Notes under the pieces: model-generated
What the model was told of the DNA's origin: nothing
Seen by the model: the letters and a program-made list of their open reading frames with translations, nothing else
Database searches by the model: none
Part shown: positions 3,809 through 41,464 of the stretch, piece by piece
Position numbering within the stretch: position 1 is the stretch's first letter
Layout: every line of letters begins with the position of its first letter
Position numbers and translations under genes: made by a program
Source: Candidatus Bathyarchaeia archaeon
GTDB taxonomy: Archaea; Thermoproteota; CALKCG01; B24
Direction of reading: 5' to 3'
DNA: 64,000 bases
Assembly: GCA_038870975.1 (NCBI GenBank)
Contig: JAVZJD010000001.1
Location: 256,001-320,000 of the forward strand

Positions 3809-3819
3809 TGTGAGCGGCT

Positions 3820-20852: not shown

Positions 20853-21932
20853 TTAAGGTTTTATCACAACTTTTAAAGCACCATACTCTTCTTTATTCAA
20901 AGCTATATGGAAAGCTTCTTCAATTTCAGTAAGCGGCAATACATGCGTTATGATCGGTTTAACCCTAACCTTACCAGTTTTAAGCAGATTTACAGCTAGA
21001 TAGTATTCAGGGTACAGATTGTTGGAGGAAACGGTTAAAACCCGTTCGCCAGCTAAAAGCCTTAGATCTAATTGAACATTTTCAGTAGATACGGCTAGTA
21101 AAACCTGCACTCCTCCCCTAGCGAGCATTCTCAAACCTTGTAGGATAGTTTCAGGTGAACCAACCGTGTTGATTACCGCTTCAACTCCAAATCCACCAGT
21201 TTTAGAAAGCACATAGTCGACTGGATCTACTTTAGAAGAATTCACAGTATAATCAGCACCAAGGTTCTCTGCGACGTGTAAAGGAGTATCCCATACATCT
21301 ATGCAGAAAGCTTCATGAGCCCCGAAGGCCTTAGCAGTCTGAAAAGCCATGAGTCCTATGGGGCCAGAGCCTATGACCGTTATCCTATAGCCTGGTTTAA
21401 CTCCAGCCCTATAAGAGGCATGAACTGCGACAGCTAAACCATCCAATTGAGATGCTTCCTCTGGATCCACAGGCCAATCTAATCTAACTGCTTTATCTTC
21501 CCAAACTGTGCAGTATTCAGCCATGCCTCCTGGTGAAGGGCTAAAATTCCAAGCCTCATCGTGACCTATATGTAAGACATCTGCACAGATGTTGTGCCTT
21601 CCCTCGCTACAGAATCTACATTTACCACACGCCTTATAGGCGATTACACCTACTTTCTCACCAACTCTATGTTTGAATTGCTTATCACCTACATCTATAA
21701 TAGTTCCTGAAATTTCATGCCCTAGTATCATGTCAGGTGGATTCGCCTTATCGATACCCAGCGTATGTAATGCCCAGGGATTTCTACCTTGAAAATAGTG
21801 AATATCGCTTCCACATATGCCACATGCATCAACTTTTATAAGAACCTCATCAGACTTAGGTTCAGGCTTTGGAACATCCATAAGCTCGATTTTAAATGGT
21901 CTTCTCAAAACAGCGGCTAGCAAACTATACAC
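20853..21932 (-). CDS. Zn-dependent (sugar-alcohol type) dehydrogenase
   Basis: CGICGSD, GHE, CxxCxxC-x7-C, GSGPIG. Confidence 0.9.
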   Translation of the reverse strand: MYSLLAAVLRRPFKIELMDVPKPEPKSDEVLIKVDACGICGSDIHYFQGRNPWALHTLGIDKANPPDMILGHEISGTIIDVGDKQFKHRVGEKVGVIAYKACGKCRFCSEGRHNICADVLHIGHDEAWNFSPSPGGMAEYCTVWEDKAVRLDWPVDPEEASQLDGLAVAVHASYRAGVKPGYRITVIGSGPIGLMAFQTAKAFGAHEAFCIDVWDTPLHVAENLGADYTVNSSKVDPVDYVLSKTGGFGVEAVINTVGSPETILQGLRMLARGGVQVLLAVSTENVQLDLRLLAGERVLTVSSNNLYPEYYLAVNLLKTGKVRVKPIITHVLPLTEIEEAFHIALNKEEYGALKVVIKP

Positions 21933-23574: not shown

Positions 23575-24108
23575 TCAACCTAAACCTTTCACATGTAGAA
23601 CCATATGAGCCGCCTCTGGGATTATAAGTCGTTCGAGGGCTAGTTTAACGGCTCTAGGTGAACCTGGTATGACGAATACTACTTTACCTTTATAGACGCC
23701 CGCTGTAGCCCTCGTCAATATGGCTATGGAGCCCTCTTCCTGGAACGTTAACACGCGGAAGAGTTCTCCAAATCCAGGGATTTCTTTTTCAAACATAGGG
23801 CTAACTGCCTCAATAGTCACATCTTTTGGTGATAAACCTGTACCTCCTGATAAGACTACAATGTCTACATCTGATTTAGAGCATAATTCTTCAATTGTCT
23901 GCTTAATCATAGTAGAGTTGTCTGATATCAGGGTTCTATAGGATAGGGAAAAACCAGCCGATTTGATTATTTGCTCAGCTAAGTCTCCAGATTCATCTCT
24001 AAAAGGCTTACCTTGTTTAAAAGATTCAAACCTAGAACTACTACAAGTAATTAGAGCAAATCTGAGGGTTTTAGGAGCCTTAAGTTTATGCTCTTCCGAG
24101 CCCATCAA
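23575..24108 (-). CDS. moaB: Molybdopterin adenylyltransferase MoaB/MogA
   Basis: DESG, GGTGLSPKDVT.EA, PGFGE.FR, PGSP.A. Confidence 0.92.
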   Translation of the reverse strand: MMGSEEHKLKAPKTLRFALITCSSSRFESFKQGKPFRDESGDLAEQIIKSAGFSLSYRTLISDNSTMIKQTIEELCSKSDVDIVVLSGGTGLSPKDVTIEAVSPMFEKEIPGFGELFRVLTFQEEGSIAILTRATAGVYKGKVVFVIPGSPRAVKLALERLIIPEAAHMVLHVKGLG

Positions 24109-24215: not shown

Positions 24216-24782
24216 ATGAAAGTCGGAGATAAGAATGGATATAGATTACGTATGACAGCTGAAGGATGGATTATGTGGATTACTGGCCTACCATCAAGTG
24301 GGAAGTCCACAATAGCTAATGGTGTTGCCCAGAAGCTTAGAGAAATGGGTCTGAAAATTGAAATCTTAGAATCAGATGAGCTTAGAAAGGTTTTAACACC
24401 TAAGCCGACCTATAGTGAGGAAGAGAGAGATTGGTTTTATAGCGTTATAGTTTACATAGCTAAACTGCTCGCCAGGAATGGTATTGACGTAATCATAGAT
24501 GCTACTGGCAATAAGAGAGTCTATAGAGATAATGCTAGAAGACACCTATCAAAGTTTATAGAGGTTTACGTTAAATGTCCTTTAGACGTCTGCATGAAGA
24601 GAGACGTTAAAGGACTCTATAAAAGAGCTCTAGAAGGTATGATTGAAACTTTACCAGGAGTTCAAACGCTCTACGAGGAGCCTTTAAAACCTGAAGTAAC
24701 AGTTGAAACAGATAAACTCACCATAAATGAATCCGTTGAACTCGTATTAAATAAGCTTAAGGAAATAGGCTATATAAGTTAA
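24216..24782 (+). CDS. cysC: Adenylyl-sulfate kinase (likely start ATG 24252)
   Basis: WITGLPSSGKST, EVYVKCPL..C..RD.KGLY, YEEP..PE. Confidence 0.88.
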   Translation: MKVGDKNGYRLRMTAEGWIMWITGLPSSGKSTIANGVAQKLREMGLKIEILESDELRKVLTPKPTYSEEERDWFYSVIVYIAKLLARNGIDVIIDATGNKRVYRDNARRHLSKFIEVYVKCPLDVCMKRDVKGLYKRALEGMIETLPGVQTLYEEPLKPEVTVETDKLTINESVELVLNKLKEIGYIS

Positions 24783-25383: not shown

Positions 25384-26352
25384 ATGTATTCGGAGGAATT
25401 GAGAAAAGGAGAAATAGGAGAATTATCCAAGCATAAAATTGTGAGAGATCCTAACGGGAGAGCCCTCCTAGTTGTCCTTCTCATTATAAGTCTTGCTTTA
25501 AACGTCTATTTAATGATAACAATTGTAAACTTCAAATCTTACATCGTAAGACTTGAAAAAGAGCTTAACAATCTTGCCGCTCAAAACGAAAACCTCTCTA
25601 GGGAGGTTCAAAACCTTAGAAACGTTTTAGATATCACTAGGAGGCAACTTGAGTACTATAAAAATCAAACCTACTATCAAGGGTTTATCTCAACTGGAGG
25701 CTTAATCGGAGAGACTGATGTCAATATTGTTGCCGTTAAAATCGCTCGCGGAGACTTATTTACAACATACTATGAAGGCGTAACACTTAAAGCTGAAGTT
25801 GAACTTAGAGATGGAAAAGGGAGAATATTAGTAAACACAGAGCCTAGAATAGGTATAGACCTTCAGACAAGTGCTCGAATAGCGGTGTCAGTAGCTGAAG
25901 CATACACCGGGTTAAACCTAACGACGGTAGATGTCATCATTACGATTAAAGGTGAGGAGGAGGTGGAAGTCGTAGATGGTCCAAGCGCAGGATTGCCCAT
26001 AACAGTAGCCATCATATCAGCCCTCAGACATGAAAACATCTCGAATGAAGTTTACGCCACTGGGACCATAAATCCTGATGGTTCTATAGGAGCCGTAGGA
26101 GGAATAGCTGAAAAAGCTTTAGCGGCTGCCGAGAAGGGGGCCAGATTCTTCCTAGTACCTAAGGGGCAGAGTAAAATAGTCATTTACGAGAGAAGGGAGG
26201 AGGAAATCCTACCCGGTTTTAAGATAATCCGCTACGTACCTAAAGAAGTATCGTTAAAAGACTACCTTAAAAATCATGGATTTGACGTCGAGGTCTTCGA
26301 AGTATCAAACATAGTGGAGGCATATAGTCTTTACACAATAAAACGCTATTAA
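25384..26352 (+). CDS. Membrane-anchored Lon-like (S16) protease without ATPase domain
   Basis: Single TM helix, coiled coil, DGPSAG (Ser) and GG..EK (Lys) dyad. Confidence 0.85.
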   Translation: MYSEELRKGEIGELSKHKIVRDPNGRALLVVLLIISLALNVYLMITIVNFKSYIVRLEKELNNLAAQNENLSREVQNLRNVLDITRRQLEYYKNQTYYQGFISTGGLIGETDVNIVAVKIARGDLFTTYYEGVTLKAEVELRDGKGRILVNTEPRIGIDLQTSARIAVSVAEAYTGLNLTTVDVIITIKGEEEVEVVDGPSAGLPITVAIISALRHENISNEVYATGTINPDGSIGAVGGIAEKALAAAEKGARFFLVPKGQSKIVIYERREEEILPGFKIIRYVPKEVSLKDYLKNHGFDVEVFEVSNIVEAYSLYTIKRY

Positions 26353-26500: not shown

Positions 26501-28027
26501 TCAATCAGATAGCTCAGCCAATATTTTGAAACATTCCTTATAGTGTTCGTATATCTTCTGGTAGACTTTAAGTAATTTAGTGTACTTATCATGAACTTTT
26601 AAGTTGGGATTGTAAGTCTTAGATATTCTAACCATTTGATTTACAGCTGTTTTAAAGTCTACATGTGCTTTTACACCCACGCTGGCAAGTATGCATGATC
26701 CTAAAGCTGCAGCATCGAGTACTTCAGAAATTTGGATACTCATACCTAGGACGTCTGCCTTTATCTGATTCCATAAGTTGCTTTTAGCCTCACCGCCAGT
26801 CATAGTGATTCGCTTAACATCTACTCCAAGCTCTCTGACCAGCTGTAGGGTTTCAGAATATTGGAAAGCAACACCTTCGAGTATTGCCCTTATGAACTCG
26901 GATTTCCTATGAGCGTGTGTAAATCCTATGAATGCTGATCTAGCTAGAGGGTTGAATTTAGGAGCTCTAGCACCCCATAAATATGGATAGTAGAAGAGTC
27001 CTCCTGCCCCAAGAGGTACATTAGCCGCAATTTTATCGAAAAGTACGTAAGGAGATAGCCCTTCTTCCTTAGCCTTATGTACCTCCTCATAGCCGAAGTT
27101 ATCTCTAAACCATCTTAAGGATTCACCTGTTGCATTTATTATTATTTCATACTCCCATGTATCTGGTACGACGTGACAACAACAGTCAATCAAACCTTTA
27201 GAATCTGGCTTAGGTCTTGAGAGGGGCACTTCAAAAACTGTCCCAGTACCAGTACCTATGTTTACACTACCTTCTATATACACGCCTGCACCCAATGCTT
27301 CACAGGGACGGTCACCACCACCTGAAACAACTGGGACTCCAACTGGTAAACCAGTCTGCTCGGAGGCATTACTACTAACTTCACCTACAACCTCCCAAGA
27401 CCCCTTGACATCTGGAAGTATATCCATGGGTATTTCTAAGGATTCGCATATTTCGTCAGACCATTGAAGCTTATTTATGTCAAATAACATCGTCCGCGAC
27501 GCCATACTTCGGTCGGTGGTTTTTACTCCACATAGTTTAAAGATCACGTAGTCTTTGGCGAATAGGATAGAGTCTATTTTTTGGAATACATTTGGTAGAT
27601 TGTCCTTTATCCATAGAATTTTCGCGGCTGAGAAAATGTAGTCAATGGGAACCCCAGTTATTTTAAGGACCTTTTCCGGAGGGATCAGTTTTTCAATTTT
27701 ATCTTTTTGCGGAGTCGCCCTCATATCTAACCATATTATGCTATTGTAGAGTTTTTCTCCAGCTTTATCTATTGGGACAAACGCTTCTCTCTGAGATGTT
27801 AAACCGATACCTACTATCCTCTCAGATGGTATTTTAGAAGTAATCTGCTTTAAAGTGGATTGAGCGGCTTTCCACCATTCCTCAGGGTCCTGTTCGGCCC
27901 AGTTCATTTGGGGATGGTAGACTTGGTACTCTTTAAACGCTTCTGTAACAATATGTCCATTAATATCGAAGGCTACGACTTTACAGCCACCTGTACCGAT
28001 ATCTATTCCGATTAGAATTTCACTCAT
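26501..28027 (-). CDS. FGGY carbohydrate kinase, xylulokinase-like
   Basis: GIDIGT, EQDPEEWW, IIW.D.R, GGGD, GTG, RAILEGVA, GGEAKS.LW.Q. Confidence 0.92.
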   Translation of the reverse strand: MSEILIGIDIGTGGCKVVAFDINGHIVTEAFKEYQVYHPQMNWAEQDPEEWWKAAQSTLKQITSKIPSERIVGIGLTSQREAFVPIDKAGEKLYNSIIWLDMRATPQKDKIEKLIPPEKVLKITGVPIDYIFSAAKILWIKDNLPNVFQKIDSILFAKDYVIFKLCGVKTTDRSMASRTMLFDINKLQWSDEICESLEIPMDILPDVKGSWEVVGEVSSNASEQTGLPVGVPVVSGGGDRPCEALGAGVYIEGSVNIGTGTGTVFEVPLSRPKPDSKGLIDCCCHVVPDTWEYEIIINATGESLRWFRDNFGYEEVHKAKEEGLSPYVLFDKIAANVPLGAGGLFYYPYLWGARAPKFNPLARSAFIGFTHAHRKSEFIRAILEGVAFQYSETLQLVRELGVDVKRITMTGGEAKSNLWNQIKADVLGMSIQISEVLDAAALGSCILASVGVKAHVDFKTAVNQMVRISKTYNPNLKVHDKYTKLLKVYQKIYEHYKECFKILAELSD

Positions 28028-28097
28028 ACTATTCTGAATATCGAACTATGAGAAGATAAGACTTCGCCTCTTAAAATATGATGAGAGAGATGCTATA

Positions 28098-30158
28098 CTA
28101 ATCTTCAAAGTAGAGTATTTCAACATCATGCGAGTTAAGTGTAACTTTAACGGTTTCACCTTTTACATGTAGACCTCTGAGTAAGCTTTTAGCTTCCAAT
28201 ACTTTACCGAAGTCTAATTCTACAGTCTTACTTTTGGGATCATGGTTTATTAAGAATAGTAGACGATAGTCACGTCCTTCTTTAGAAACCAATTCAACAG
28301 GTTCTCCTCTGAGTTCGACTGGAGGTTTAACTAACCTTTCCTCAATGATTCTATCTGCTATAAGTTTAGATGCGTCTTGAGTCAGAAAGCAACCAATGTA
28401 TACAGCGTAACCCCTACCATAACGATTAAGTGTTATAGCTGGTCTACCCTTAAGCCATTCATATTCATGAACCCCCAGAACTTGGGCAGAAGTTACCGTT
28501 AACTCTTCCAGCCAACCTGAAACCGACGTTTGTCCATATTGAGTAGATACTTTCACCTCTATCTCAGGTGGTATAGATGTGTAATCTGTCACCCGTAGTC
28601 CGAATAGATCTTTAAGTTCGCCTGGAAGGCCGTTTGAGTATACACGGTTAAATTCATCTTTAACAGAAGTTCTAGCCGTTGCTATAAGCAAACCTCCGTT
28701 TTCCACGTAGTTTTTAAGTTTTTCTATTAGATTTTTATTCGTCAAATATAGGAATGGGGCTAGTAGTATACGGTAGTTTTTAAAATCATGGTCTGGAGAT
28801 ATTACGTCTACATTTACGCCATGATGCCAGAAGCCTTTATAGGCATTCAATGCTTGTTCATGGTAGCTTTTAGCATAGTACCTATTTTCAATTAATGTAG
28901 CCCAGAGAGAATCATATGAGAATATAAGTCCGACATCGCTTTTACATTTTGCATCGACTAGGATTTCACCAATCTTCTTTAGCTCTTCACCGGTTCTCTT
29001 TACTTCTAAGTACCTTCGGTTTATCTCACCATCATGGTTTAAAATACCATGCCAATACTGTTCTTTGCCAAAACACACGGTACGGTATCTGAAGTAGACT
29101 ACGCCTTCAGCTCCATGGGCAATTGCTTGGTAAAGCCATTTCCTTAACTCACCTGGGTCAGGTGTTACTCCTATTGGATGCCCAGCATAGCCATCAGTTG
29201 GTCCAGCCTGAAGCTCCATAACCCAAAAGCTCTCCATACCCATGCATCTAGTAGCATCGTGAAGCATGGATATCCAAGCAGGATCGTAATATGCTCTAGC
29301 AAACTTAGGGTAGCAATCCCATGAAGGAAAGTCTAGGTTTCTACTTAAATCGTAATAGTCCACGCCTGGAAAAAGCCCCATTAGATTCGTCGTCACCTTT
29401 TTATTAGGGCTTATAGATTTCAATATTCGTACCTGTATTTTAAGGAACTCTACAAAAGACTTTGACCTAAATCTAAACCAGTCTAAGCTTAGCCCTCTGT
29501 TACATTCATCGAAGGGTGGGGTTGGAGGATGTATTTCATCCCAATCTCCATACTCATGGCTCCAGAATATCGTTCCATATACTTTATTGAGTTCACTTAT
29601 AGATCCATACTTGTTTTTAAGCCAGTTTCTAAAGAGAGTAACACAGTGGTCACAGTAGCAGTATTCGTCGCCAAGGGAGAGCTCGTTATCTATCTGATAT
29701 CCTATGACGTCCGGATTATCCCTATAGTGTTTAGCCATAGCTTCCACAATTCTCTCAGAGGCTTTAATGTAGTTTGGATTATTGGGACAGTAGTGCCTCC
29801 TAGCAACAGGAGGCATTCTATGTCCTTGGAAATTTACAGGTAGGATGTCTGGATGGGCTTTTACAAGCCATGGTGGGGGAGCCGCAGTCGGAGTACCTAA
29901 TACTGCCTTAATACCCTTAGTGGAGAGAAGCTCTATAACTTCATCAAGCCATTGAAAGTTGAACTTGCCTGGTGAAGGCTCAAGTCTACACCATGCAAAC
30001 TCTGCAAGTCTAACCACGTTAAACCCAGCGCTACTGATAAGCTCGGCATCCAACCCTCTTCTCTCAATAGGCCAATGTTCAGGATAATAGTCTACACCAA
30101 ACCACAGTTTAATGCTACTCATAGAACCATAGCTCCTTGAGGGGGGATAAGTAGTCAC
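28098..30158 (-). CDS. GH42 beta-galactosidase (start GTG 30158 or ATG 30122)
   Basis: GVDYYPEHW, AEFAW..LEP, LGTPTAAPP, catalytic DNE and MELQ, Zn cysteines; no signal peptide. Confidence 0.93.
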   Translation of the reverse strand: MTTYPPSRSYGSMSSIKLWFGVDYYPEHWPIERRGLDAELISSAGFNVVRLAEFAWCRLEPSPGKFNFQWLDEVIELLSTKGIKAVLGTPTAAPPPWLVKAHPDILPVNFQGHRMPPVARRHYCPNNPNYIKASERIVEAMAKHYRDNPDVIGYQIDNELSLGDEYCYCDHCVTLFRNWLKNKYGSISELNKVYGTIFWSHEYGDWDEIHPPTPPFDECNRGLSLDWFRFRSKSFVEFLKIQVRILKSISPNKKVTTNLMGLFPGVDYYDLSRNLDFPSWDCYPKFARAYYDPAWISMLHDATRCMGMESFWVMELQAGPTDGYAGHPIGVTPDPGELRKWLYQAIAHGAEGVVYFRYRTVCFGKEQYWHGILNHDGEINRRYLEVKRTGEELKKIGEILVDAKCKSDVGLIFSYDSLWATLIENRYYAKSYHEQALNAYKGFWHHGVNVDVISPDHDFKNYRILLAPFLYLTNKNLIEKLKNYVENGGLLIATARTSVKDEFNRVYSNGLPGELKDLFGLRVTDYTSIPPEIEVKVSTQYGQTSVSGWLEELTVTSAQVLGVHEYEWLKGRPAITLNRYGRGYAVYIGCFLTQDASKLIADRIIEERLVKPPVELRGEPVELVSKEGRDYRLLFLINHDPKSKTVELDFGKVLEAKSLLRGLHVKGETVKVTLNSHDVEILYFED

Positions 30159-31501
30159 TCTTCAGAGAGGAATTTCGTACCCCAATATTCTAAGGCTTCT
30201 CTTAATTCAATGTGCTCTTTAGCGTATTCTTCCAATGGGATGCCTTCCATAAATGCTTCCATAGCCTGCAACATGGCTGTTGCACCGATTCTAGTCCCCT
30301 TAGGATGCCCGTGAATTCCACCTCCAGCGTTCAACTGAATATCTGGAGAGCCTAACAGTTGTAGGTTTATCGGGACTAGGGCTGGATGTATTCCGCCTGA
30401 GGCGACGGGCAATACTGGTTTAAGATCATACCAATTGCTTCTTAGGAAGTCATTTATGTAACGGATCCCAGCAATGCCGGAGAATTTTTCAAACTGTTTC
30501 AAAGTGCCGCTACCAGGCTTTTCCATTTTACCTTTAGCTGTTCCAGTATGTAGCTGATCTCCACCAGCCAGCCTAACTAGTTTAGCCAATACAAGCATAT
30601 GAATACCGTGATCTGGGGTTCTAGTCATAGCAGCATGTAAACATCTATGAACATGAATTGGAACTTTAACAGAGGGGTCTTCTGCAAGCGCTCTTAAAAT
30701 GGGATAACCTGTGCAAAGTACGTCAACCATTATACAATTAGCACCATTATCAAGCGCTGTTTCAACGTTTTTCCATAGCATATCTAAATCCGCCGTAACG
30801 TCGACTGCGTACAGTACCGTTCTACCAGTTTCCTCTTTAACCTTATCGAGCATATCCATTACGTGTGAGACCCTCTCCTCCAAACGATTAAACTTTTGAC
30901 TTGTAAGCGTTTCATCGTCTTTTATAAAGTCAACGCCACCTATCGCCGCCTCATAAGCCACTTTAGCAGTTTCTTCGGGGCTAAGCCCTACTTTAGGCTT
31001 AATTATCGTACCTAGGTGGGGTCTTGGATTTCTATTAGTACCAATTATCTTCCTAACGCCTTCTATGCCAAACTTTGGTCCTTTAAACATCTTAACGTAC
31101 TGCTTGGGTAAATTCACATCCAGTAGTCTTACGCTTTTCAAAGCACCTATTCCGAAAAGGTTGCCAGCTATTATTGAAAGCATATGTGAAATCCCAGCTT
31201 CCAAATCGAATAGGTCCAGAGGGAAGGCTACTTGCACCAGCCCTCCGCCGTTCAACTTATCCACGTGAAATACTTTACCCGCCAGCTTCAACACTCTATC
31301 GGTTATTGTTACAACTTTAGTCCATGTTCCTATCGACTGTTCAGCCGCAAGGTTTATTGCAGCGCCTTGAAGGTTGACTCCTTCCTTTGGAGTCATATAG
31401 TATAGACATGTAACATAACGGTCTGGGTCTATCTCTTCAACACTAGCTGTAAACGTCTTTATCCAAAATTCCTCTTCAAACCACTCCTTTAGCGCACTCA
31501 T
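30155..31501 (-). CDS. rbcL: RuBisCO large subunit, form III-like, with loop-6 insertion
   Basis: AEQSIGTW, GNLFG, IKPK, KDDE, HVHR, LHTGT..GKME, ASGG, GGG.HGHP: catalytic residues retained. Confidence 0.88.
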   Translation of the reverse strand: MSALKEWFEEEFWIKTFTASVEEIDPDRYVTCLYYMTPKEGVNLQGAAINLAAEQSIGTWTKVVTITDRVLKLAGKVFHVDKLNGGGLVQVAFPLDLFDLEAGISHMLSIIAGNLFGIGALKSVRLLDVNLPKQYVKMFKGPKFGIEGVRKIIGTNRNPRPHLGTIIKPKVGLSPEETAKVAYEAAIGGVDFIKDDETLTSQKFNRLEERVSHVMDMLDKVKEETGRTVLYAVDVTADLDMLWKNVETALDNGANCIMVDVLCTGYPILRALAEDPSVKVPIHVHRCLHAAMTRTPDHGIHMLVLAKLVRLAGGDQLHTGTAKGKMEKPGSGTLKQFEKFSGIAGIRYINDFLRSNWYDLKPVLPVASGGIHPALVPINLQLLGSPDIQLNAGGGIHGHPKGTRIGATAMLQAMEAFMEGIPLEEYAKEHIELREALEYWGTKFLSEE

Positions 31502-31861
31502 GAAAAATAGACACCCATTTAAGAGTCAGAATAGTTGAAAATAAAAACCTAATTGTTCATTTCCATTACACAGTCCTTGCTGCAAACAGTTGAGTTTATT
31601 AGAAGTATCCCCATGATTGATTCTTCCATAGTTGCAGGAATATGCCAACTTTATCCAATTTAAGACGATATAACATTGCCTTTGGTTTAAGATTAAATGC
31701 TGAATACAGTGTCTAAATGCTTGTGTAAGATCGGTCTTGAGTATGTATTGTCAAACGATAACCTAGAGTCATTCAGAATACGTATGAAGATGTAGATTTT
31801 ACTGAAGGAAAGGAAAATGATTAATTTTTAAACAGAGACAACTATTTAGAGGAGTTTAACT

Positions 31862-33310
31862 ATGAGGTATTTCTTAGGTTTAGATATAGGTACTAAAAAT
31901 ATTAAAGCAGCCATTTTGAATGACGAAGGCAAAGTAGAAGAAGATGCTTTAACACCAGTTTACGACCTTATACATCAGCCCAGAGATGGGTTCGTGGAGC
32001 GCGATCCTCTAGCGCTTTGGAAGAGAGTATGCGAAACTTTGAAGAAACTCAGGTTTAAGGATAAAGTTGAGGGGGTTTGCGTTGACGCTACAAGTGGTAC
32101 CATTGTACCGTTGGATGAAAAAGGTGTGCCACTACATCCGCTTATAATGTACAACGATAGTAGAGCTACGGTAGAAGCAGAAGAACTTAGGAAAAACAGT
32201 CCTAAGGCACGCGAATTCGAAAGTTTTCTTCCAATAACACCTCAGTTGGTTCTACCTAAAATAATGTGGATGAAGAAACACTATGAATTCTACAGGCGAG
32301 TCCATAAGATACTTCATGAGAGTGATTATATAGTCTACAAATTGACGGGGATATTTGCCTCCTCTAGCAATACTGCTGGAAAATCCCACGCGCTTTTAGA
32401 CAGTTTAAAGTATCTTGAAGAAGCATATGAAGATGTAGACGTCCCCGTCGATTTCATGCCTGAATTGAAGCCTATAGGTTCAATTGTAGGCCATGTGACG
32501 GAGAACGCTGCCTTGGAAACTGGTTTACCGAGTGGAATACCTGTAGTAAATGGAGTTACAGATGCTAGTGCTGGAGACATAACCTCAGGTGCTATAAAAG
32601 CTGGACAAGCAAATGCAACAATCGGTACGGCTTTAACTGTCCATGTGATTGTGGATAAACCTGTACCCGATGCACTTCAGAGGTTCTACTATAAGACTTA
32701 TGTCAATAACTTGTTTCTGGCTGGAGGATTTACAAATGCTGGGACAACTGCTTTAGATACTACGAGTAAACTTCTGGGTAAAAACCTCGCAGAGCTCACG
32801 GATATGGCTAGAAAAATCCCACCCGGCTGTGAAGGTTTAATTGCGTGCACGGAATGGTATGGTGTAAGAGTACCGAAAACCCATCCTAGTGTTAAAGGGT
32901 TTTTCATCGGACTTTCAGAAATTACTGCAAACCCAGGTGCCATCTTTAGAAGTATGCTGGAGGGGTCTGCTTTCGCGCTTAAGCTTATGCTGGATGCAGT
33001 AGAAGACGTGACGAAGGTTAAAGTATATGACCTTAGAGTGAGTGGAGGCGCCTCTAGGAATGATTTATTCATGGAGATAATAGCCGATGTTTCAGGTAAA
33101 GATGTTTATATAATTGAAGAGCCTGATTCAGCCATCGGTTCAGCCATATTAGCTATGTGGGGCTGCATGGGTGGAAGAATCGAAGAGGTCGTGAATAAGG
33201 TTGTTAAGATAAAAAAGCTTTTCAAGCCTACTGAAGAAAACACCGTGAAATATTCGAGGCTTCTAGATAAATATGTTCAATTAGTTGATGCTTTATCCGA
33301 GATACTATAG
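31862..33310 (+). CDS. FGGY carbohydrate kinase, ribulose-kinase-like subgroup
   Basis: GLDIGT, VDATSGT, MYNDSRA, GVTD, LEG.AF, SGGASRN. Confidence 0.88.
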   Translation: MRYFLGLDIGTKNIKAAILNDEGKVEEDALTPVYDLIHQPRDGFVERDPLALWKRVCETLKKLRFKDKVEGVCVDATSGTIVPLDEKGVPLHPLIMYNDSRATVEAEELRKNSPKAREFESFLPITPQLVLPKIMWMKKHYEFYRRVHKILHESDYIVYKLTGIFASSSNTAGKSHALLDSLKYLEEAYEDVDVPVDFMPELKPIGSIVGHVTENAALETGLPSGIPVVNGVTDASAGDITSGAIKAGQANATIGTALTVHVIVDKPVPDALQRFYYKTYVNNLFLAGGFTNAGTTALDTTSKLLGKNLAELTDMARKIPPGCEGLIACTEWYGVRVPKTHPSVKGFFIGLSEITANPGAIFRSMLEGSAFALKLMLDAVEDVTKVKVYDLRVSGGASRNDLFMEIIADVSGKDVYIIEEPDSAIGSAILAMWGCMGGRIEEVVNKVVKIKKLFKPTEENTVKYSRLLDKYVQLVDALSEIL

Positions 33311-33563
33311 CTTCAATTAATAAAGGTTTCTTGGTAAAACAGTAGACTTTAAAACAGATGTGAAAGTAGTTTCACGAGTTGTTCAGAAAAAGCTTAGACG
33401 TTTGGACAATATCTACTCGAATCGCTGCGCTATCCTTTAAACAAATGATGTTGACGTAGGTTATTGAACTTGATGCATATGTAGGCAGTCGTATGGAGTT
33501 TTCTGCTTCAATCTGCGATATGGAAAAGGTTTAAATTTAAGACTCTAGAGAATTAAACGATTC

Positions 33564-34232
33564 ATGTCGGTAAATCGTTTTAAACTGGTCGTCTTTGACC
33601 TAGATGGAACGTTGATCAGTGTAGATAGTATATGGCGTTTTCTACACGAGAAGTTGAACACATGGAGTAAAGCAAAACTATACGCTGAAATGTTCTACAG
33701 TGGTAAAATAGACTACGTGACTTGGGCGCGTTTAGACGTATCGTTATGGAGAGGTATACCGCTTAAACGCATCGAAGCCCTCACCTCGGAAATAGAATAT
33801 GTCGAGAACTCCCATGAGACCGTGAGCTGGTTCAAGAGAATGGGTTTTAAAGTGGGTGTTATAAGTGCTGGTTTATCTGTCTTAGCTGAGAGAGCCATGT
33901 TGGACTTTAATCTGGACTTCGCGGAAGCTAATAGGCTTACAGTTAGAAATGGACTTCTGACGGGTGAAGTAGAGGTTACAGTTGCTCATGGTGAGAAGGA
34001 TAAAGTACTCGACAACATTATACGTAGATTTGGAATTGAAAGGGAAGAGTGCATAGCTATTGGAGACGACGAGTCGAATATAAGCCTCTTTAAAGCCGTG
34101 GGACTAGGCATAGCTTTTAACCCCACGTCGCGAGAAGTTGCAGAAAACGCAGACATAGTGGTATATGGGAGGCTTTTAAATGTAGTTTCTAAAGTAGCAG
34201 ACCTCATTTCTCAGCGAGATATTAGAATTTAG
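33564..34232 (+). CDS. HAD phosphatase, phosphoserine phosphatase-like
   Basis: FDLDGTL, ISAG, ANRL....G.LTGEV, IGD, GLGIAFNP. Confidence 0.85.
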   Translation: MSVNRFKLVVFDLDGTLISVDSIWRFLHEKLNTWSKAKLYAEMFYSGKIDYVTWARLDVSLWRGIPLKRIEALTSEIEYVENSHETVSWFKRMGFKVGVISAGLSVLAERAMLDFNLDFAEANRLTVRNGLLTGEVEVTVAHGEKDKVLDNIIRRFGIEREECIAIGDDESNISLFKAVGLGIAFNPTSREVAENADIVVYGRLLNVVSKVADLISQRDIRI

Positions 34233-35602: not shown

Positions 35603-36838
35603 TTACCTGCCGAGTTTTCCCAGTAGCTGGTATAAGAGTGAAGCTATTCTAACAGCTCCAGTTGAATCTCTCTGGTCGAATCCTGCTCTCTTAAGGCTCC
35701 TCATCTCAGGTGAGAACAGTGAAGATGGCGACTCGCGTTTGACTATGTCTACGTTACCCTTGTATAGTTTAACCCATATAGTGCCGTTTACGTGTTGTTC
35801 GCATGCATCTATGAATGCGTCTAAATCTCTTCTGAGAGGATGATACCACATAGCGTGGTAAACCATGTCAGCCCAAAGTCTATCAACTTCACTTTTAAGT
35901 CTAAGCTCTTCTTTAGTTAAAGTTAAGTGTTCTAAGTCTGCATGTGCCTTGAGGAGTATTGTGGCGGCTGGAGCTTCGTAAAGTTCTCTAGACTTTAAAC
36001 CTATTATTCCGTCCTCAAGTATATCTATACGTCCAACACCGTTCTCCCCACCAACCCTGTTAAGGTATAGGATTATTTCAACGGGGTCTTTAACGTCATC
36101 TACGCTAACTGGTACTCCGTTTTTAAACTCTACAACGACCTCTCTAGGTTTATCGGGAGCCTCTTCAGGTGGAATAGTCCATATATAGTCTTCAGGATAC
36201 TGAGACTCTAAATCTTCAACCTGCCCACTTCCTATTGAGTGGCTCCACATGTTTATATCGCCACCTAACCTTCCCTTCCTAGGTTTAGGCGTTATTCCAT
36301 ACTTTTTAAGATACTCTTCCTCTACTGCTCTTGTTAGATTAAGCTCTCTAACAGGCGCTATTACCGTTATTCCTGGGTCTAAGTACTTGGCTGTTATCTC
36401 CATTCTAAACTGGTCATTGCCCTTACCTGTACATCCGTGAGCCATGTATTTAGCACCATATTTTTTCGCAACTTCTACACACTTCGAAGATATGAGGACT
36501 CTAGTCATGGAAGTACCTATTGGATATCCCTGGTAGTTCCCATTAGCCTTGATACACCTGAAAATATACTCTTTTACAAATTCTTCTTTAGCGTCGAAGA
36601 ATATCGGGCTAAGATTGAGCTTTTCAGCTCTTTCAAAGGCCACTTGAATTTCTTCTTCCCCTTGGCCGACGTCTACAAGCACAGGTATGACTTCTTTAAA
36701 ACCATATACTTCTTTCAAAAGTATTGTTACGAGGGTTGAATCAAGGCCTCCGCTGTACGCTGAAACTACGGTTTCTCCATCATATCTTGCAGGAGGTTTT
36801 AACTCCAAAAAGCCCTCTCTCTTCTTTGAGAAAGTCAA
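35603..36838 (-). CDS. argG: Argininosuccinate synthase
   Basis: AYSGGLDS, HGCTGKGNDQFR, GVGRID..ED...GLKSRE.YEAP. Confidence 0.97.
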   Translation of the reverse strand: MTFSKKREGFLELKPPARYDGETVVSAYSGGLDSTLVTILLKEVYGFKEVIPVLVDVGQGEEEIQVAFERAEKLNLSPIFFDAKEEFVKEYIFRCIKANGNYQGYPIGTSMTRVLISSKCVEVAKKYGAKYMAHGCTGKGNDQFRMEITAKYLDPGITVIAPVRELNLTRAVEEEYLKKYGITPKPRKGRLGGDINMWSHSIGSGQVEDLESQYPEDYIWTIPPEEAPDKPREVVVEFKNGVPVSVDDVKDPVEIILYLNRVGGENGVGRIDILEDGIIGLKSRELYEAPAATILLKAHADLEHLTLTKEELRLKSEVDRLWADMVYHAMWYHPLRRDLDAFIDACEQHVNGTIWVKLYKGNVDIVKRESPSSLFSPEMRSLKRAGFDQRDSTGAVRIASLLYQLLGKLGR

Positions 36839-36955
36839 ATATAAAAATTTCGGTATGAAGTATGTGGAAAACTTATTGGTTGAAGCGATAGCATCTAACT
36901 TTTTCCAAATCTAAGCTATTATTTATAAACAGCAGAATAGGTTGAATAGATTCTG

Positions 36956-38464
36956 ATGAGTCAAGACATCTTAAGAAGAGGAAGACTGAAGGGGTTTAAA
37001 CCTCCTGAAGTAGACGCATATACGAGCTCTTTGGAAGCGGATAGGTGGCTCTTCAAGTCGGACATAATGGTTGACAAAGCTCACGTAATAATGCTCACAG
37101 AGCAAGGAGTGATTAAAGTAGAGGAGGGCTTGGCGATTCTTGAGACTCTTGAAGAGCTTGAACATTTGAGCTATGAAGAGCTTGTAAAAGGCCCGTTTGA
37201 AGACGTCCATGTAGCCATAGAGTCTAGAGTCATAGAGAGGCTTGGTGAAGATATTGGAGGTAAAATGCATACAGCTAGGTCTAGAAACGATGAAGTCGCG
37301 ACATGTTTAAGGTTGACGGTTAGGAGGCAGGTTATTGAAATACTTAGAGAACTTTTAAACCTGCTTAAAGTCATCTACGATAGAAGCCTAGGGGAATTGA
37401 ATACTATTATGCCAGGCTATACGCATACTCAACACGCTCAACCAGTCACTCTAGCACACCATCTTCTAGCCCATTTCGATGCGTTAGCTAGAGACTTTGA
37501 AAGACTGTTAGACGCCTATAAGAGGGTTAATAAGTCGCCGCTTGGCGCATGTGCTTTAGCAACTACTGGTTTTCCTATAAGTCGATTTAGAACTGCTGAA
37601 CTCTTAGGCTTTGATGGTCTTGTTGAAAACTCTATGGATGCTGTCTCTAGTAGAGACTTCATACTTGAAATACTGTCCGATATAGCCATACTGGCTACTG
37701 ATTTAAGCCGTATTGCTGAAGAGTTGGTCTTATGGAGTAGCTCAGAGTTTAAATTCGTAGAGCTCCCAGATGAGTATTCGTCAACTAGCAGCATTATGCC
37801 TCAGAAGAAGAACCCCGACACTATGGAGATAACTAGGGCTAAGGCTGGTAGAATATATGGAAATCTTATGAGTACTTTATCTATGCTTAAAGCCCTGCCT
37901 TTAACGTACAATAGGGATATGCAGGAGGTTACTCCTAGGCTTTGGGATTCCATTGAAACCGTTAAATACATGCTTAGAATAATGTCTGGAGCTTTAAAGG
38001 GGGCTGTTTTCAATAGGGAGGTGATGCGTAGAGCCGCTGATGAAGGCTTTTCAACGGCTACAGAGCTTGCAGATGTCCTTGTGAGGAAAAAAGGCTTGGC
38101 TTTTAGAACAGCACATATGATAGTTGGAGCATTAGTGCTTGAAGCTTTAAAAAGAGGGCTTAAACCCGGCGAAGTAGACAGTCGGCTTTTAAACGAGGTT
38201 TCAGAGAGGGTTTACGGTAAGCCCGCCGATTTAACAGATGAAGAGGTTAAGAATGCCTTAAACCCTGAAAAATTCATAAGTGCTAGGAGCATCATAGGTG
38301 GACCTAGCCCTAGTACGGTTGAAGAGGCGCTAAAACGTAGAGAGGAACTGCTGAGCATTTTAAAATGCAAAGTTGAATGTTTGGAAAATAGAGAAGTAGA
38401 GGTTGAAAGGAGTCTTAATAATGCTATAGCGTCTATTGGAAAGCAAGTAAGAGGCAAATCGTAG
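36956..38464 (+). CDS. argH: Argininosuccinate lyase
   Basis: HTARSRND, MPGYTHTQHAQP, SSIMPQKKNPD. Confidence 0.97.
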   Translation: MSQDILRRGRLKGFKPPEVDAYTSSLEADRWLFKSDIMVDKAHVIMLTEQGVIKVEEGLAILETLEELEHLSYEELVKGPFEDVHVAIESRVIERLGEDIGGKMHTARSRNDEVATCLRLTVRRQVIEILRELLNLLKVIYDRSLGELNTIMPGYTHTQHAQPVTLAHHLLAHFDALARDFERLLDAYKRVNKSPLGACALATTGFPISRFRTAELLGFDGLVENSMDAVSSRDFILEILSDIAILATDLSRIAEELVLWSSSEFKFVELPDEYSSTSSIMPQKKNPDTMEITRAKAGRIYGNLMSTLSMLKALPLTYNRDMQEVTPRLWDSIETVKYMLRIMSGALKGAVFNREVMRRAADEGFSTATELADVLVRKKGLAFRTAHMIVGALVLEALKRGLKPGEVDSRLLNEVSERVYGKPADLTDEEVKNALNPEKFISARSIIGGPSPSTVEEALKRREELLSILKCKVECLENREVEVERSLNNAIASIGKQVRGKS

Positions 38465-39280: not shown

Positions 39281-41464
39281 TTACTTCCATGGAAACTCTA
39301 CCAGTTCTTTAACTGTGAATGCCCCCGTAAGCCTTATGTCTTCTGACGAAGAGCCTACCATGACTTTGAATAGACCAGGCTCTACGACGCGTCTCATCTC
39401 TTGGTTTAGAAACGACAGCATTTCCAGAGTCAGTGTGAATTCTACTGTCTTCTCCTCACCAGGCTTTAACGTGATACGTTTAAACCCCTTCAGCTCTTTA
39501 ACCGGTCTAGTCACGCTTGCAACAGCATCGTTTATGTACAGTTGTACAACCTCATCGCCTTCACGACTACCAATATTCTTCACCTTAAGCTTGATTTTGA
39601 CTATGTCTTTAGGCTCTACTTCTCTAGGTGAAATTTCTAAATCACTATATTCAAACTTCGTATAGCTTAAGCCGTGTCCGAATGGGAATAGAGGTGAATA
39701 TGGTATATCTAGATACTTCGATGTCCATCTATCTGGAGACGGGGGTCTTCCCGTGTTCTTATGGTTGTAGTATATGGGTACCTGTCCAACAGTGCGTGGA
39801 AAAGTCGCCGGGAGTTTGCCTCCGGGATTGTAGTCTCCAAAGATTACATCTGCTATGGCGTAGCCTGCTTGAATTCCAGGGAACCAAGCTTCTATTATAG
39901 CTGGTATATGTTCTGCAGACCAGGATATTGACAGAGGTCTACCGTTCATTAAGACCTCTACTACTGGAACCCCAGTCTCATATACGGCTTTTACAAGCTC
40001 CTCTTGGACTCCCGGAAGGTCGAGAAACGCTCTAGAGGCGGCTTCACCGCTCATATCTCTACTCTCACCGACGACTAAAATCGCCACCTTACACTTTCTA
40101 GCTACTTCAACAGCCTCTTTGAAGCCTTCGGTAGACTTTCCATTTATATCGCAACCTTTAGCGTATAAGACTCTAGTTTCGGGTGAAACTTTACTTTTAA
40201 CCCCCTCTAGGACTGTAACTACGTCTTTAGGATTGCCTAGGCAGGACCATGGGCCTAACGGGGCTTCTTTATCATCTGCTAGAGGACCTATGACTGCGAT
40301 GGACTCTACGTTTTTACTTAACGGTAGGAGGCCTCCATCGTTTTTCAACAGGACGATAGATTTTCTAGCTATTTCAACTGTAGCTTCAACATGCTCTCTA
40401 CACTTTACTATATATTTTGCGCGTTCAGGGTCGACATATGGACAGTCAAATAAGCCCAGTCTAAACTTGATTCTAAGTATACGTCTAACAGCTTCATTTA
40501 TCCGGTCCTCAGATATCCTTCCGTCTTTGACAAGTTGAAGGAGTGTTCTACGGTAAACATCACCTTGCATATCCATATCCACGCCGGCGTTTAAGGCTTT
40601 CTCTGCGGCTTCGAATACGTCTCCTGCTATTCCATGGTTGATAAGCTCTCCGACGGCGTTCCAATCACTCACGACAAACCCTTCAAAACCCCATTCTTCA
40701 CGTAGAATCTTCCTAAGTGTAAATGGGTTTGCTGAAGCAGGTATGCCGTTTAAATCGTTGAAAGCGCTCATTATTGTTCCAGCTCCGGCTTCAACTGTCG
40801 CTTTAAAAGGAGGAAGATACACTTCTCTAAGCGTCCGCTCAGATATGTCTACAGTGTTGTAGTCTCTCCCCCCTTCTGCACCTCCGTAGGCTACGTAGTG
40901 TTTTGGACATGCGACTAAGGTATTTAAATCCGAAAGGTCTCTCCCCTGAAATCCCTCTACTAGGGCTCTAGCCATGACCGAGCCCAAGTATGGGTCTTCA
41001 CCAGCTCCTTCAGCTATCCGTCCCCACCTTGGGTCTCTCGCGATATCAACCATAGGTGCGAAAGTCCAATGTATACCTTCAGCACGGGCTTCAGAGGCCG
41101 CTATTGATGCGGCCCTTTTAACGGTATCGGGGTCCCATGTGCTCGCTAATCCTAGGGGTATTGGAAATATCGTCTTATAGCCGTGTATAACGTCTAATCC
41201 GAATATTAACGGTATGCCAAGTCTTGTCTTCTCAACGGCTATTTTCTGTATTCTGTTGGTTTCTTCGGCTCCGAAGACGTTTAAAAGAGACCCTATTCTC
41301 CCCTCTGCGATCCACTTCTCATATTCATCTGTAAAACCGCTATACTGACATAGCTGTCCAATCTTCTCTTCAAGAGTCATCCTACTGAGGAGGTCTTCAA
41401 CCCTCTTATCAACCGGTTGATTCGGGTCTAAATAGACTGGTTTTACGGCTTCAGAGTTTCCCAA
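39281..41464 (-). CDS. GH3 beta-glucosidase (BglX-like), cytoplasmic
   Basis: RMTLEEK.GQL, RDPRWGR..EG.GEDP, KHY, VSDW nucleophile, PFGHGLSY, Fn3-like tail. Confidence 0.94.
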   Translation of the reverse strand: MGNSEAVKPVYLDPNQPVDKRVEDLLSRMTLEEKIGQLCQYSGFTDEYEKWIAEGRIGSLLNVFGAEETNRIQKIAVEKTRLGIPLIFGLDVIHGYKTIFPIPLGLASTWDPDTVKRAASIAASEARAEGIHWTFAPMVDIARDPRWGRIAEGAGEDPYLGSVMARALVEGFQGRDLSDLNTLVACPKHYVAYGGAEGGRDYNTVDISERTLREVYLPPFKATVEAGAGTIMSAFNDLNGIPASANPFTLRKILREEWGFEGFVVSDWNAVGELINHGIAGDVFEAAEKALNAGVDMDMQGDVYRRTLLQLVKDGRISEDRINEAVRRILRIKFRLGLFDCPYVDPERAKYIVKCREHVEATVEIARKSIVLLKNDGGLLPLSKNVESIAVIGPLADDKEAPLGPWSCLGNPKDVVTVLEGVKSKVSPETRVLYAKGCDINGKSTEGFKEAVEVARKCKVAILVVGESRDMSGEAASRAFLDLPGVQEELVKAVYETGVPVVEVLMNGRPLSISWSAEHIPAIIEAWFPGIQAGYAIADVIFGDYNPGGKLPATFPRTVGQVPIYYNHKNTGRPPSPDRWTSKYLDIPYSPLFPFGHGLSYTKFEYSDLEISPREVEPKDIVKIKLKVKNIGSREGDEVVQLYINDAVASVTRPVKELKGFKRITLKPGEEKTVEFTLTLEMLSFLNQEMRRVVEPGLFKVMVGSSSEDIRLTGAFTVKELVEFPWK

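Follow-up and report, generated by a model that had tools for sequence, protein, structure and literature searches.

An FGGY-family kinase gene beside RuBisCO in several distant archaeal lineages hints at a new route to ribulose-1,5-bisphosphate in a genome that also encodes the usual supply route

How is a RuBisCO supplied with ribulose-1,5-bisphosphate (RuBP) when its gene lies among sugar kinases and a glycosidase? The question is raised by a locus in the window, the 64,000-nucleotide stretch of a Bathyarchaeia contig analysed here; the host is a hot-spring archaeon. The five ORFs of the original prediction were all confirmed in place and orientation. The reverse strand carries FGGY1 (positions 26501 to 28027; 508 amino acids), a glycosidase of the GH42 beta-galactosidase family (28098 to 30158 as called; PF02449, PF08532, and PF08533), and rbcL (30155 to 31501; 448 amino acids). 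On the forward strand, FGGY2 (31862 to 33310; 482 amino acids) is divergent from rbcL across an intergenic region of 360 nt (31502 to 31861) and is followed by a SerB/PSP-like HAD phosphatase (33564 to 34232), which scored 150 against the TIGR01491 cut-off of 151.9. The Zn sugar dehydrogenase (20853 to 21932) and the GH3 BglX protein (39281 to 41464) said to be nearby were both found. The GH42 gene had been described as overlapping or abutting rbcL; the close spacing stands, but the 4-nt overlap arises from an unconserved GTG. An ATG at 30122 is common to five relatives and gives a GH42 gene of 28098 to 30122, with a gap of 32 nt to rbcL.

RbcL proved to be catalytically complete and form III-like, as predicted. 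Each of the 20 active-site and RuBP-binding positions examined is retained (including E60, T65, N123, K175, K177, K201, D203, E204, H294, R295, H298, H327, K334, and S379), and its closest PDB matches are archaeal form III enzymes. The genome has one PF00016 match, which makes rbcL a single-copy gene. The best-scoring family was TIGR03326 (form III), yet the score lies below the curated cut-off (446.7 versus 497.45 bits). In a quick tree with few named references, from which forms II, II/III, III-a, and III-c were left out, RbcL groups (97% SH-aLRT) with enzymes of prs-e2b2-rbcL-deoA operons, apart from forms I and IV, and this clade is separate from that of the TIGR03326-passing enzymes of genomes G451 and G480.

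It is highly improbable that RbcL is instead a form IV-like protein whose substrate, supplied by the kinases, would be a sugar phosphate other than RuBP or a branched one of the apiose or hamamelose type. Both phosphate sites and the loop-6 lysine are intact, the form IV models miss the protein (OiaX, 209 versus a cut-off of 700; MtnW, 211 versus 514 bits), the tree sets it away from RuBisCO-like proteins (RLPs), and it is the sole RuBisCO available to the AMP pathway of this genome. These points outweigh the facts that form IV proteins do pair with sugar kinases, that one FGGY2 subclade pairs with an RLP, and that the basic pocket of FGGY2 would also suit a sugar acid. The form IV system of apiose catabolism (OiaX with a DUF1537 kinase) is similar in placing a RuBisCO-family gene beside a sugar kinase. 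However, this RbcL lies on a different branch from the OiaX-type proteins, whose partner is a four-carbon acid sugar kinase, whereas the kinase neighbours of rbcL are FGGY proteins and not DUF1537. Judged from its sequence, RbcL is form III-like, not form IV, and very probably a genuine RuBP carboxylase, acting as the outlet of the cell for pentose carbon.

The genes for AMP phosphorylase (deoA), ribose-1,5-bisphosphate (R15P) isomerase (e2b2), and phosphoribulokinase (PRK) are all missing from the window, as originally noted, but the first two are encoded elsewhere in the genome and pass their cut-offs (TIGR03327, 619.8 versus 535; TIGR00511, 405.5 versus 314.1). The proposal that RbcL stands apart from nucleoside salvage is therefore not upheld. 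Of the outcomes that the original prediction had named as speaking against it, AMP-pathway genes elsewhere did turn up, whereas a lack of conserved linkage did not. Candidate genes for RpiA, PRPP synthetase, and an APRT-type protein are also present, and only three of the FGGY2-carrying genomes tested gave no AMP phosphorylase. Because a complete conventional supply route is present here, and AMP phosphorylase occurs in nearly all FGGY2 genomes tested, a new step is not needed. PRK was not found: this genome, which is 92.9% complete, gave no PF00485 match, and a motif scan gave no P-loop ORF resembling PRK, in a search that lacked a genome of established archaeal PRK content as a control. Transketolase, phosphoketolase, and a canonical ribulose-phosphate 3-epimerase were not found in the genome, and the lack of the last leaves a xylulose-5-phosphate feed from FGGY1 unclosed. 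As candidates for a ribose-1-phosphate kinase, five PfkB matches were detected; the one scanned could be placed in no named family at the threshold applied.

In Thermococcus kodakarensis, the carboxylating pentose bisphosphate (AMP) pathway comprises AMP phosphorylase, R15P isomerase, and a form III RuBisCO (PMC12628685, PMC9700705), and Qi et al. assigned Bathyarchaeia RuBisCOs to it (PMC8407382). As described, that pathway contains no FGGY kinase. In contrast, rbcL here adjoins FGGY kinases and a glycosidase, not deoA or e2b2, and its product falls below the TIGR03326 cut-off and in a separate clade.

A conserved module including GH42, the HAD phosphatase, the Zn dehydrogenase, and GH3 was not seen beyond the genus. 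GH42 is linked to rbcL within the genus only, and FGGY1 lies near rbcL only in the genus, at locus L048, and in genome G007. FGGY1 is xylulokinase-like, as predicted, with a TIGR01312 (XylB) score of 390.3 against a cut-off of 380.25 bits. Its substrate is uncertain: in an alignment to 2ITM, the first two specificity positions are Arg-Glu (glycerol-kinase type), not the Met-His of XylB (PMC3245297). As a lineage-specific addition, GH42 and FGGY1 plausibly supply glycoside-derived sugar, with weak support for their link. The HAD gene does follow FGGY2, but across 253 nt, and it was found in no relative's locus, where a different HAD-IA gene is carried instead; it probably lies outside the module.

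FGGY2 is the member for which the linkage of a sugar kinase to RuBisCO holds across distant lineages. A RuBisCO-family gene lies within 4.5 kb of FGGY2 in 12 of the 17 informative 70%-identity clusters (an intact RuBisCO in 11), in divergent, convergent, and overlapping-operon layouts, and the RbcL partners fall in two separately supported clades, one of which passes the TIGR03326 cut-off. In Thermoproteota and Asgard genome samples chosen without regard to gene context, FGGY2 was carried by 10/401 and 11/281 genomes, respectively, and RuBisCO was present in 21/21 of these carriers; FGGY2 adjoined rbcL in only three of seven lineages. A strong RuBisCO match also occurred in ~60% of FGGY2-negative Asgard genomes, and RbcL was matched in 14 of 44 phylum-level genomes. 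Many bearers of close RbcL orthologues lack FGGY2 altogether (G006, G007, G010, G013, and G015), and other close orthologues sit in prs-e2b2-rbcL-deoA operons. One FGGY2 subclade adjoins an RLP that keeps only the P1 site and should not use RuBP, since R295, H298, H327, and K334 are missing. In Helarchaeota, a SePSK-like relative that had been selected regardless of its context lies 14 nt behind an intact RuBisCO. From this repeated linkage, FGGY2 is likely an accessory kinase functionally tied to RuBisCO. We found no published description of the pairing.

The linkage could also be inherited or accidental, an ordinary AMP-salvage RuBisCO lying among sugar genes in a genome rich in them. This genome has seven FGGY genes, GH42 and HAD are unconserved beyond the genus, and the identities of FGGY2 and RbcL fall off roughly together, as for one inherited block. 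Such a block, however, would need to have persisted through inversions and the exchange of one RuBisCO clade for another, and the association recurs with the more distant SePSK-like kinase; by simple arithmetic, in a 2-Mb genome with one rbcL, a given gene falls within 4.5 kb of it with a chance of roughly 0.5%. We therefore consider inherited or accidental clustering very unlikely.

What FGGY2 may phosphorylate is suggested by its neighbours and its pocket. FGGY2 is flanked by genes of a galactitol-type PTS, next to which no dehydrogenase or hydrolase was recognised; G451 and G480 have the order EIIB-EIIA-FGGY2 facing HPr-rbcL. Behind a PTS, a free-sugar kinase is redundant. A class II aldolase neighbours FGGY2 in 10 loci and a class I aldolase in 10 loci, a xylose-isomerase-like gene adjoins it in several, and glycosidases of GH42 and GH172 also occur. 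The protein had been predicted to be a ribulokinase-like FGGY encoded divergently from rbcL; that orientation stands, but the protein passes no named FGGY family model, with FucK and RhaB scoring worst. It belongs to a small and discrete archaeal family related to SePSK and AtXK-1, and the scores of full-length matches among 1.84 billion representatives drop from 597 to 339 to 280 bits. In a FastTree run where long branches meet, FGGY2 makes up a separate 100% clade without a settled sister group, and a SePSK-like profile at 1e-100 did not retrieve the FGGY2 genomes. For the substrate-side region, matched over residues 150 to 300, AtXK-1 was the best structure match.

FGGY2 has the SePSK/AtXK-1 pocket motifs (T-S-G, lysine 174, T-D, Y276, and basic residues at 261 and 278), and K174, H261, Y276, and K278 are invariant across 53 members. 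At position 261, SePSK-like proteins have K or R, gluconate kinase, whose substrate is acidic, has R, and xylulokinase has F. The cyanobacterial SePSK (Synpcc7942_2462) and the chloroplast AtXK-1 (At2g21370) share with FGGY2 S78, K174, T233-D234, Y276, and the basic 261 and 278 (PDB 5HTN/5HTR) and are likewise orphan kinases of unknown physiological substrate (PMC4880283). However, FGGY2 is only ~30% identical to SePSK-like proteins, forms a distinct clade, has H261 and K278 where these have K/R and H, and carries R47, E153, H176, and D239 in addition. In SePSK, which was tested on neutral sugars only, ribulose binds with O4/O5 at the catalytic-side aspartate, a C5-kinase geometry, and free D-ribulose is stimulatory, whereas AtXK-1 barely responds to ribulose (PMC4880283). 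Together with the PTS and aldolase neighbours, the invariant basic residues, placed in the pocket by alignment and not from measured coordinates, suggest a phosphorylated pentulose as the substrate.

FGGY2 could accordingly be a kinase that uses ATP to convert a D-ribulose monophosphate to RuBP, a putative second, PRK-independent entry to RuBisCO; RbcL would turn RuBP and CO2 into two 3-phosphoglycerate molecules for lower glycolysis. Phosphorylation of ribulose-1-phosphate (Ru1P) at C5 would be about twice as probable as that of ribulose-5-phosphate (Ru5P) at C1. Possible sources of Ru1P are PTS uptake (Njordarchaeia), the joining of DHAP and glycolaldehyde by a FucA-type aldolase, phosphorylation of ribulose by a second kinase, or RuBP losing its C5 phosphate. 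This whole explanation, in which RbcL is a pentose sink and FGGY2 makes RuBP directly, with the Ru1P 5-kinase favoured, is the leading one, although tentative and somewhat less probable than not. Slightly more doubtful is the specific claim that FGGY2 is a natural Ru1P 5-kinase or an FGGY-fold analogue of PRK, opening a PRK- and AMP-independent route to RuBP and a pentulose fermentation with CO2 co-fixation, and that the same activity may be the function of SePSK and AtXK-1.

The main rival, a plain D-ribulokinase, would require no new chemistry. FGGY2 would make Ru5P, the known detour through R5P, PRPP, AMP, and R15P would lead to RuBP, and the genes would cluster because all serve one pentose sink. 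This genome has a candidate gene for every enzyme of the detour, related RbcLs share operons with PRPP synthetase, the closest assayed relative, SePSK, is stimulated by D-ribulose, and xylose-isomerase-like genes lie beside FGGY2 in several loci; since transketolase was not found, RuBisCO is a natural pentose sink. We nevertheless hold this reading to be somewhat unlikely. It leaves unexplained the PTS context, the aldolase neighbours, and the persistence of FGGY2, instead of prs, rpiA, or deoA, right next to rbcL in several layouts; the response of AtXK-1 to ribulose is slight, and for a neutral sugar there is no evident use for invariant basic residues.

The pairing of a kinase with a class II aldolase is classical in fucose and rhamnose catabolism. 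The class II aldolases beside FGGY2 in 10 loci match it and would fit a pentulose 1-kinase, acting on D-ribulose as FucK does, with Ru1P passing to an aldolase, to a RuBisCO-like isomerase, or to FGGY1, which would complete RuBP. The P1-only RLP of the linked subclade agrees with such an enzyme, as do two FGGY genes together in the window and at L099, L122, L143, and L207. However, these second FGGY genes are mutually non-orthologous (22 to 36% identity to FGGY1), the FucK and RhaB models score worst, and the SePSK complex puts C5, not C1, at the main site, so that a 1-kinase is unlikely. The preference for a monophosphate kinase is also set against a repair role, in which FGGY2 would re-phosphorylate Ru1P arising from accidental RuBP dephosphorylation or dispose of a RuBisCO by-product, with little sugar flux and with GH42 and FGGY1 as bystanders. 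In the sampled genomes FGGY2 was never found without RuBisCO, and RuBisCO often without FGGY2; HAD phosphatases lie nearby in several loci, and SePSK and AtXK-1 occur in RuBisCO-rich compartments. The HADs of different loci are not orthologous, however, and the PTS, isomerase, and glycosidase neighbours point to uptake and catabolism, which makes a repair kinase distinctly unlikely.

The proposed FGGY2 step has several counterparts. Halophilic archaea's non-carboxylating pentose bisphosphate pathway likewise has Ru1P, a HAD phosphatase, and a FucA-type aldolase around RuBP, but it runs from RuBP to Ru1P (RuBP phosphatase, then Ru1P aldolase) without RuBisCO, opposite to the FGGY2 step (PMC9700705); the HAD and aldolase found here fall well short of the scores that the halophile models require. 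In the Calvin cycle and the reductive hexulose-phosphate pathway, a kinase also makes RuBP directly from a pentulose monophosphate (PMC5241800). That kinase, PRK, is a P-loop enzyme, whereas FGGY2 has the actin-like FGGY fold, and no regeneration cycle is evident here. For photorespiration, a synthetic Ru1P shunt (Trudeau et al. 2018) needs a FucA-type aldolase and exactly the Ru1P 5-kinase proposed here, for which FGGY2 is no more than a candidate; this activity was called new to nature and was undetectable in >20 kinases tested (PMC6298115).

If the 5-kinase assignment is true, FGGY2 would be the missing enzyme of that bypass (PMC6298115), and its gene context names specific candidate substrates for the orphans AtXK-1 and SePSK. 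The absence of PRK has been used to rule Bathyarchaeia out of RuBisCO-based fixation (PMC8407382); if RuBP were made from a pentulose monophosphate by a kinase of another fold, PRK-negative archaeal genomes would be read differently. If FGGY2 is a ribulokinase, what remains is an inlet for sugar into a pathway already described. To our knowledge, PRK and R15P isomerase are the RuBP suppliers for RuBisCO described so far. A sigma-70 scan of the rbcL/FGGY2 intergenic region remained at chance level, the sigma-70 model being one that excludes archaeal promoters, and in the most compact relatives this divergent region shrinks to 143 to 183 nt.

The kinase gene FGGY2 is the real signal at the rbcL locus, where a known kind of RuBisCO is paired with a genuine kinase that had not been described. 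All five genes stand where the original prediction placed them, with the right coordinates and orientations, as judged from the window ORFs. On the minus strand, rbcL (30155-31501), the glycosidase gene GH42, and the xylulokinase-like gene FGGY1 (26501-28027) follow in series; on the plus strand, FGGY2 (31862-33310), divergent and 360 nt from the rbcL start, is followed by a SerB/PSP-like HAD phosphatase gene (33564-34232). The overlap proposed between rbcL and GH42 depends on a GTG that has no counterpart in relatives; the common ATG is at 30122, 32 nt past the rbcL stop. A sigma-70 promoter scan, the model of which does not cover archaeal promoters, stayed at chance level.

The order rbcL-GH42-FGGY1 is kept in all same-genus genomes, and divergent FGGY2 is present at rbcL in every one of them except one fragmented assembly. 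These relatives are deposited as Candidatus Bathyarchaeia, and the isolate names of some (JZ-2 and QZM) fit the hot springs that an earlier study sampled in Yunnan and Tibet (PMC8407382). Among the relatives' loci compared, no GH42 adjoined rbcL outside the genus, and FGGY1 was near rbcL beyond the genus in two further genomes only (locus L048 and genome G007). In other members of the order, the neighbors of rbcL are unrelated and FGGY2 is absent. The SerB-like HAD gene after FGGY2 was found in this genome (G000) alone; in the compared relatives, the genes 3' of FGGY2 are those for a HAD-IA protein, a small cyclase-like protein, and a class I aldolase. Because of this lack of conservation, the HAD gene at 33564 was rejected as a module member. 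The Zn dehydrogenase and GH3 genes, both of them real, were likewise set aside as having no linkage evidence: in relatives no GH3 lies within 8 kb of rbcL, and the position of the Zn dehydrogenase gene lies past the flanks compared. The sugar module originally proposed is confirmed as an observation and partly borne out as an interpretation, with the FGGY2-RuBisCO link recurring across lineages, GH42 confined to the genus, and the HAD gene unconserved. Further neighbors in the window (25384-26352, 24216-24782, 23575-24108, and 35603-38464) are unrelated to the module and include a membrane-anchored Lon/S16-type protease; others resemble, as judged by translation only, adenylyl-sulfate kinase, MoaB, and argininosuccinate synthase and lyase. 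DUF6785/DUF6784 membrane proteins, which are possible sugar transporters, occur in several copies across the genus (window 42285-44288; locus L041, 1098-3122), and one such gene is close to FGGY2 in relatives.

The rbcL gene is the sole PF00016 gene in G000 (92.9% complete). Of the active-site positions of RbcL, 20 were checked and none has changed; the loop-6 lysine and both phosphate sites are among them. Its closest solved structures are archaeal form III enzymes (317 to 344 bits), form I scoring lower. Its match to TIGR03326 (446.7 bits) is below the cut-off of 497.45, and the form IV models match far less well. In a quick tree, RbcL grouped at 97% with metagenomic archaeal enzymes, among them RbcLs of prs-e2b2-rbcL-deoA operons; the RuBisCO-like proteins and a second clade of intact RuBisCOs branched separately. 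Because of the residues kept, the HMM scores, and the tree position, the form IV option (apiose or hamamelose catabolism) was rejected, and a form IV-like role is ranked lower. From its residues and tree position, RbcL is classified as one of the form III enzymes that serve the pentose bisphosphate pathway, despite missing the HMM cut-off, and Bathyarchaeia RuBisCOs have already been assigned to that pathway (PMC8407382).

The original prediction had noted that genes for AMP phosphorylase (deoA), ribose-1,5-bisphosphate (R15P) isomerase (e2b2), and phosphoribulokinase are absent from the window. A genome-wide search identified the first two elsewhere in G000 (619.8 versus 535 bits and 405.5 versus 314.1 bits, respectively) and no phosphoribulokinase, by profile or motif. 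Both enzymes are also present in nearly all relatives tested, and several Asgard e2b2 matches fall below the cut-off yet adjoin deoA. G000 also encodes RpiA, PRPP synthetase, an APRT-type protein, a Fae/HPS fusion, and seven FGGY kinases; no transketolase, phosphoketolase, or canonical ribulose-phosphate epimerase was found in it. RbcL therefore has an ordinary source of ribulose bisphosphate (RuBP) and, with transketolase and phosphoketolase not found, RuBisCO is the obvious exit for any pentose taken up. Three other candidates were rejected: a gene at 324937 of contig C1, homologues of which adjoin e2b2 in related operons, encodes PRPP synthetase and not a ribose-1-phosphate kinase; a weak PF00834 match is the Fae/HPS fusion and not an epimerase; and a PF00923 match on contig C2 (locus L193, 5009-7183) is a 724-amino-acid protein with a partial transaldolase/FSA match and not a standard transaldolase. 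A 696-amino-acid protein with the same Pfam match (locus L205, 8431-10521) directly adjoins FGGY2.

The FGGY2 family is small, with 60 proteins at an E value of <1e-60, and an exhaustive profile search left a gap in the full-length matches, whose scores went from 597 bits down to 339 and then 280. The named carriers are Thermoprotei, Nitrososphaeria, Brockarchaeota, Korarchaeota, Njordarchaeia, Hodarchaeota, and Freyarchaeota. When loci were chosen by the kinase alone, a RuBisCO-family gene was located within 4.5 kb of FGGY2, mostly within 400 nt, in 12 of 17 informative 70%-identity clusters; a grouping by chance is ranked lower. The arrangements are divergent, convergent, or an operon with a 19-nt overlap. 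The partner RuBisCOs fall into two intact clades, each with its own support, and one FGGY2 subclade is paired with a RuBisCO-like protein without the second phosphate site. In genome samples drawn without regard to context, FGGY2 was carried by 10 of the 401 Thermoproteota and by 11 of the 281 Asgard genomes, and RuBisCO was present in all 21, counts that include kin and hence non-independent genomes. Among these carriers, FGGY2 adjoins rbcL in three of seven lineages (this genus and Hodarchaeota-like and Njordarchaeia-like genomes). RuBisCO is also found in ~60% of the FGGY2-negative Asgard genomes. RuBisCO was not near two other proteins resembling SePSK, the cyanobacterial orphan FGGY kinase, or near three such proteins in Asgard genomes. 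A literature search on FGGY kinases and archaeal form III RuBisCO, with most subscription journals outside its reach, returned no paper, and the recurring link is undescribed in the papers searched.

Other loci hold related clusters. A Helarchaeota operon (L207, 4814-11306) contains GH172, an intact form III rbcL, and, 14 nt behind, a SePSK-like kinase that is a more distant FGGY2 relative; a further FGGY gene and a HAD gene are close by. A Hodarchaeota locus (L099, 2218-12731) contains two RuBisCO-family genes, one for an intact enzyme and one for a RuBisCO-like protein, each next to a separate FGGY kinase gene; genes resembling those for 2-hydroxyacid and malate/lactate dehydrogenases come after them. 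In L143 (1585-10754), L145, and L150, the FGGY2 subclade is clustered with genes for TPP-dependent dehydrogenase E1/E2 subunits, another FGGY kinase, and a class II aldolase, as well as a xylose-isomerase-like gene; the RuBisCO-like protein there lacks R295, H298, H327, and K334, and the cluster is, judged by its genes, an uncharacterized form IV pathway.

None of the named FGGY family models fits FGGY2. The best match of residues 150 to 300 was AtXK-1, the chloroplast orphan kinase, and a profile of the nearest relatives of FGGY2 matched AtXK-1 and SePSK best. The predicted structure is confident (pLDDT 95.6), and a fold search with it returned only the FGGY fold at 17 to 26% identity. The physiological substrate of neither SePSK nor AtXK-1 is known; among five neutral compounds, D-ribulose stimulated SePSK, and AtXK-1 barely responded (PMC4880283). 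The main rival explanation is that FGGY2 is a ribulokinase feeding a route from ribulose through ribulose-5-phosphate, R5P, PRPP, and AMP to R15P, which needs no new chemistry, has a candidate gene for every step, and agrees with the operons that related RbcLs share with PRPP synthetase, but which accounts less well for the phosphotransferase system (PTS) and aldolase contexts. Several loci have galactitol-type PTS genes on the flanks of FGGY2, with no dehydrogenase or hydrolase recognized there, and in genomes G451 and G480 these genes are followed by an intact form III rbcL. A PTS delivers an already phosphorylated sugar, as with fructose-1-phosphate and its kinase. After RuBisCO, the commonest enzyme neighbors of FGGY2 are FucA-type and class I aldolases, which act on ketose-1-phosphates. 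Four residues, K174, H261, Y276, and K278, are invariant in the family, and alignment and predicted secondary structure suggest that they point toward the sugar's far end. At position 261, every SePSK-like protein has a basic residue, as does gluconate kinase; xylulokinase has Phe there. The PTS context, the aldolase neighbors, and the invariant basic residues together suggest that the substrate is probably a phosphorylated pentulose.

Since the partner is an intact, two-phosphate RuBisCO, the simplest product of FGGY2 would be RuBP. FGGY2 would phosphorylate ribulose-1-phosphate at C5, and the RuBP would pass to the adjoining RuBisCO. The 5-kinase is favored because SePSK holds C5 on the catalytic side; activity as a 1-kinase is ranked lower, as is a repair role. 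We regard RuBP formation by FGGY2 as a tentative proposal, somewhat more likely to be wrong than right. Earlier work looked for a natural ribulose-1-phosphate 5-kinase without success (PMC6298115).

Galactitol-type PTS sets (EIIA, EIIB, EIIC, and HPr) were identified in L241 (1-5567), L242 (251-4116), L103 (2774-9440; additionally with enzyme I), and L204 (3492-8458). Such sets, in Njordarchaeia-like and other archaea, adjoin FGGY2 and sometimes rbcL, and after EIIC comes the gene for a 120-amino-acid protein that matches no Pfam family. The PTS-linked FGGY2 orthologue of L241, from Njordarchaeia, is at 2517-3971. In L043 (2108-4116), e2b2 is in tandem with a second gene resembling that for R15P isomerase, which scores below the cut-off and adjoins PRPP synthetase; such a second gene also occurs in genomes G401 and G404 to G407. 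In genome G001 (contig C6, 23619-26555), the AMP phosphorylase match is in two pieces within a single 1017-amino-acid open frame, an intein-like pattern. Beyond the window, an insert of 19 nt (locus L006, 1836-1854; G000 contig C2, 729926-729944) interrupts mtnA within the His-Cys-Asn codons, and its removal restores the frame. The insert folds as a bulge-helix-bulge (z = -4.6), is conserved in genomes G003 and G005, and is likely an archaeal mRNA intron.
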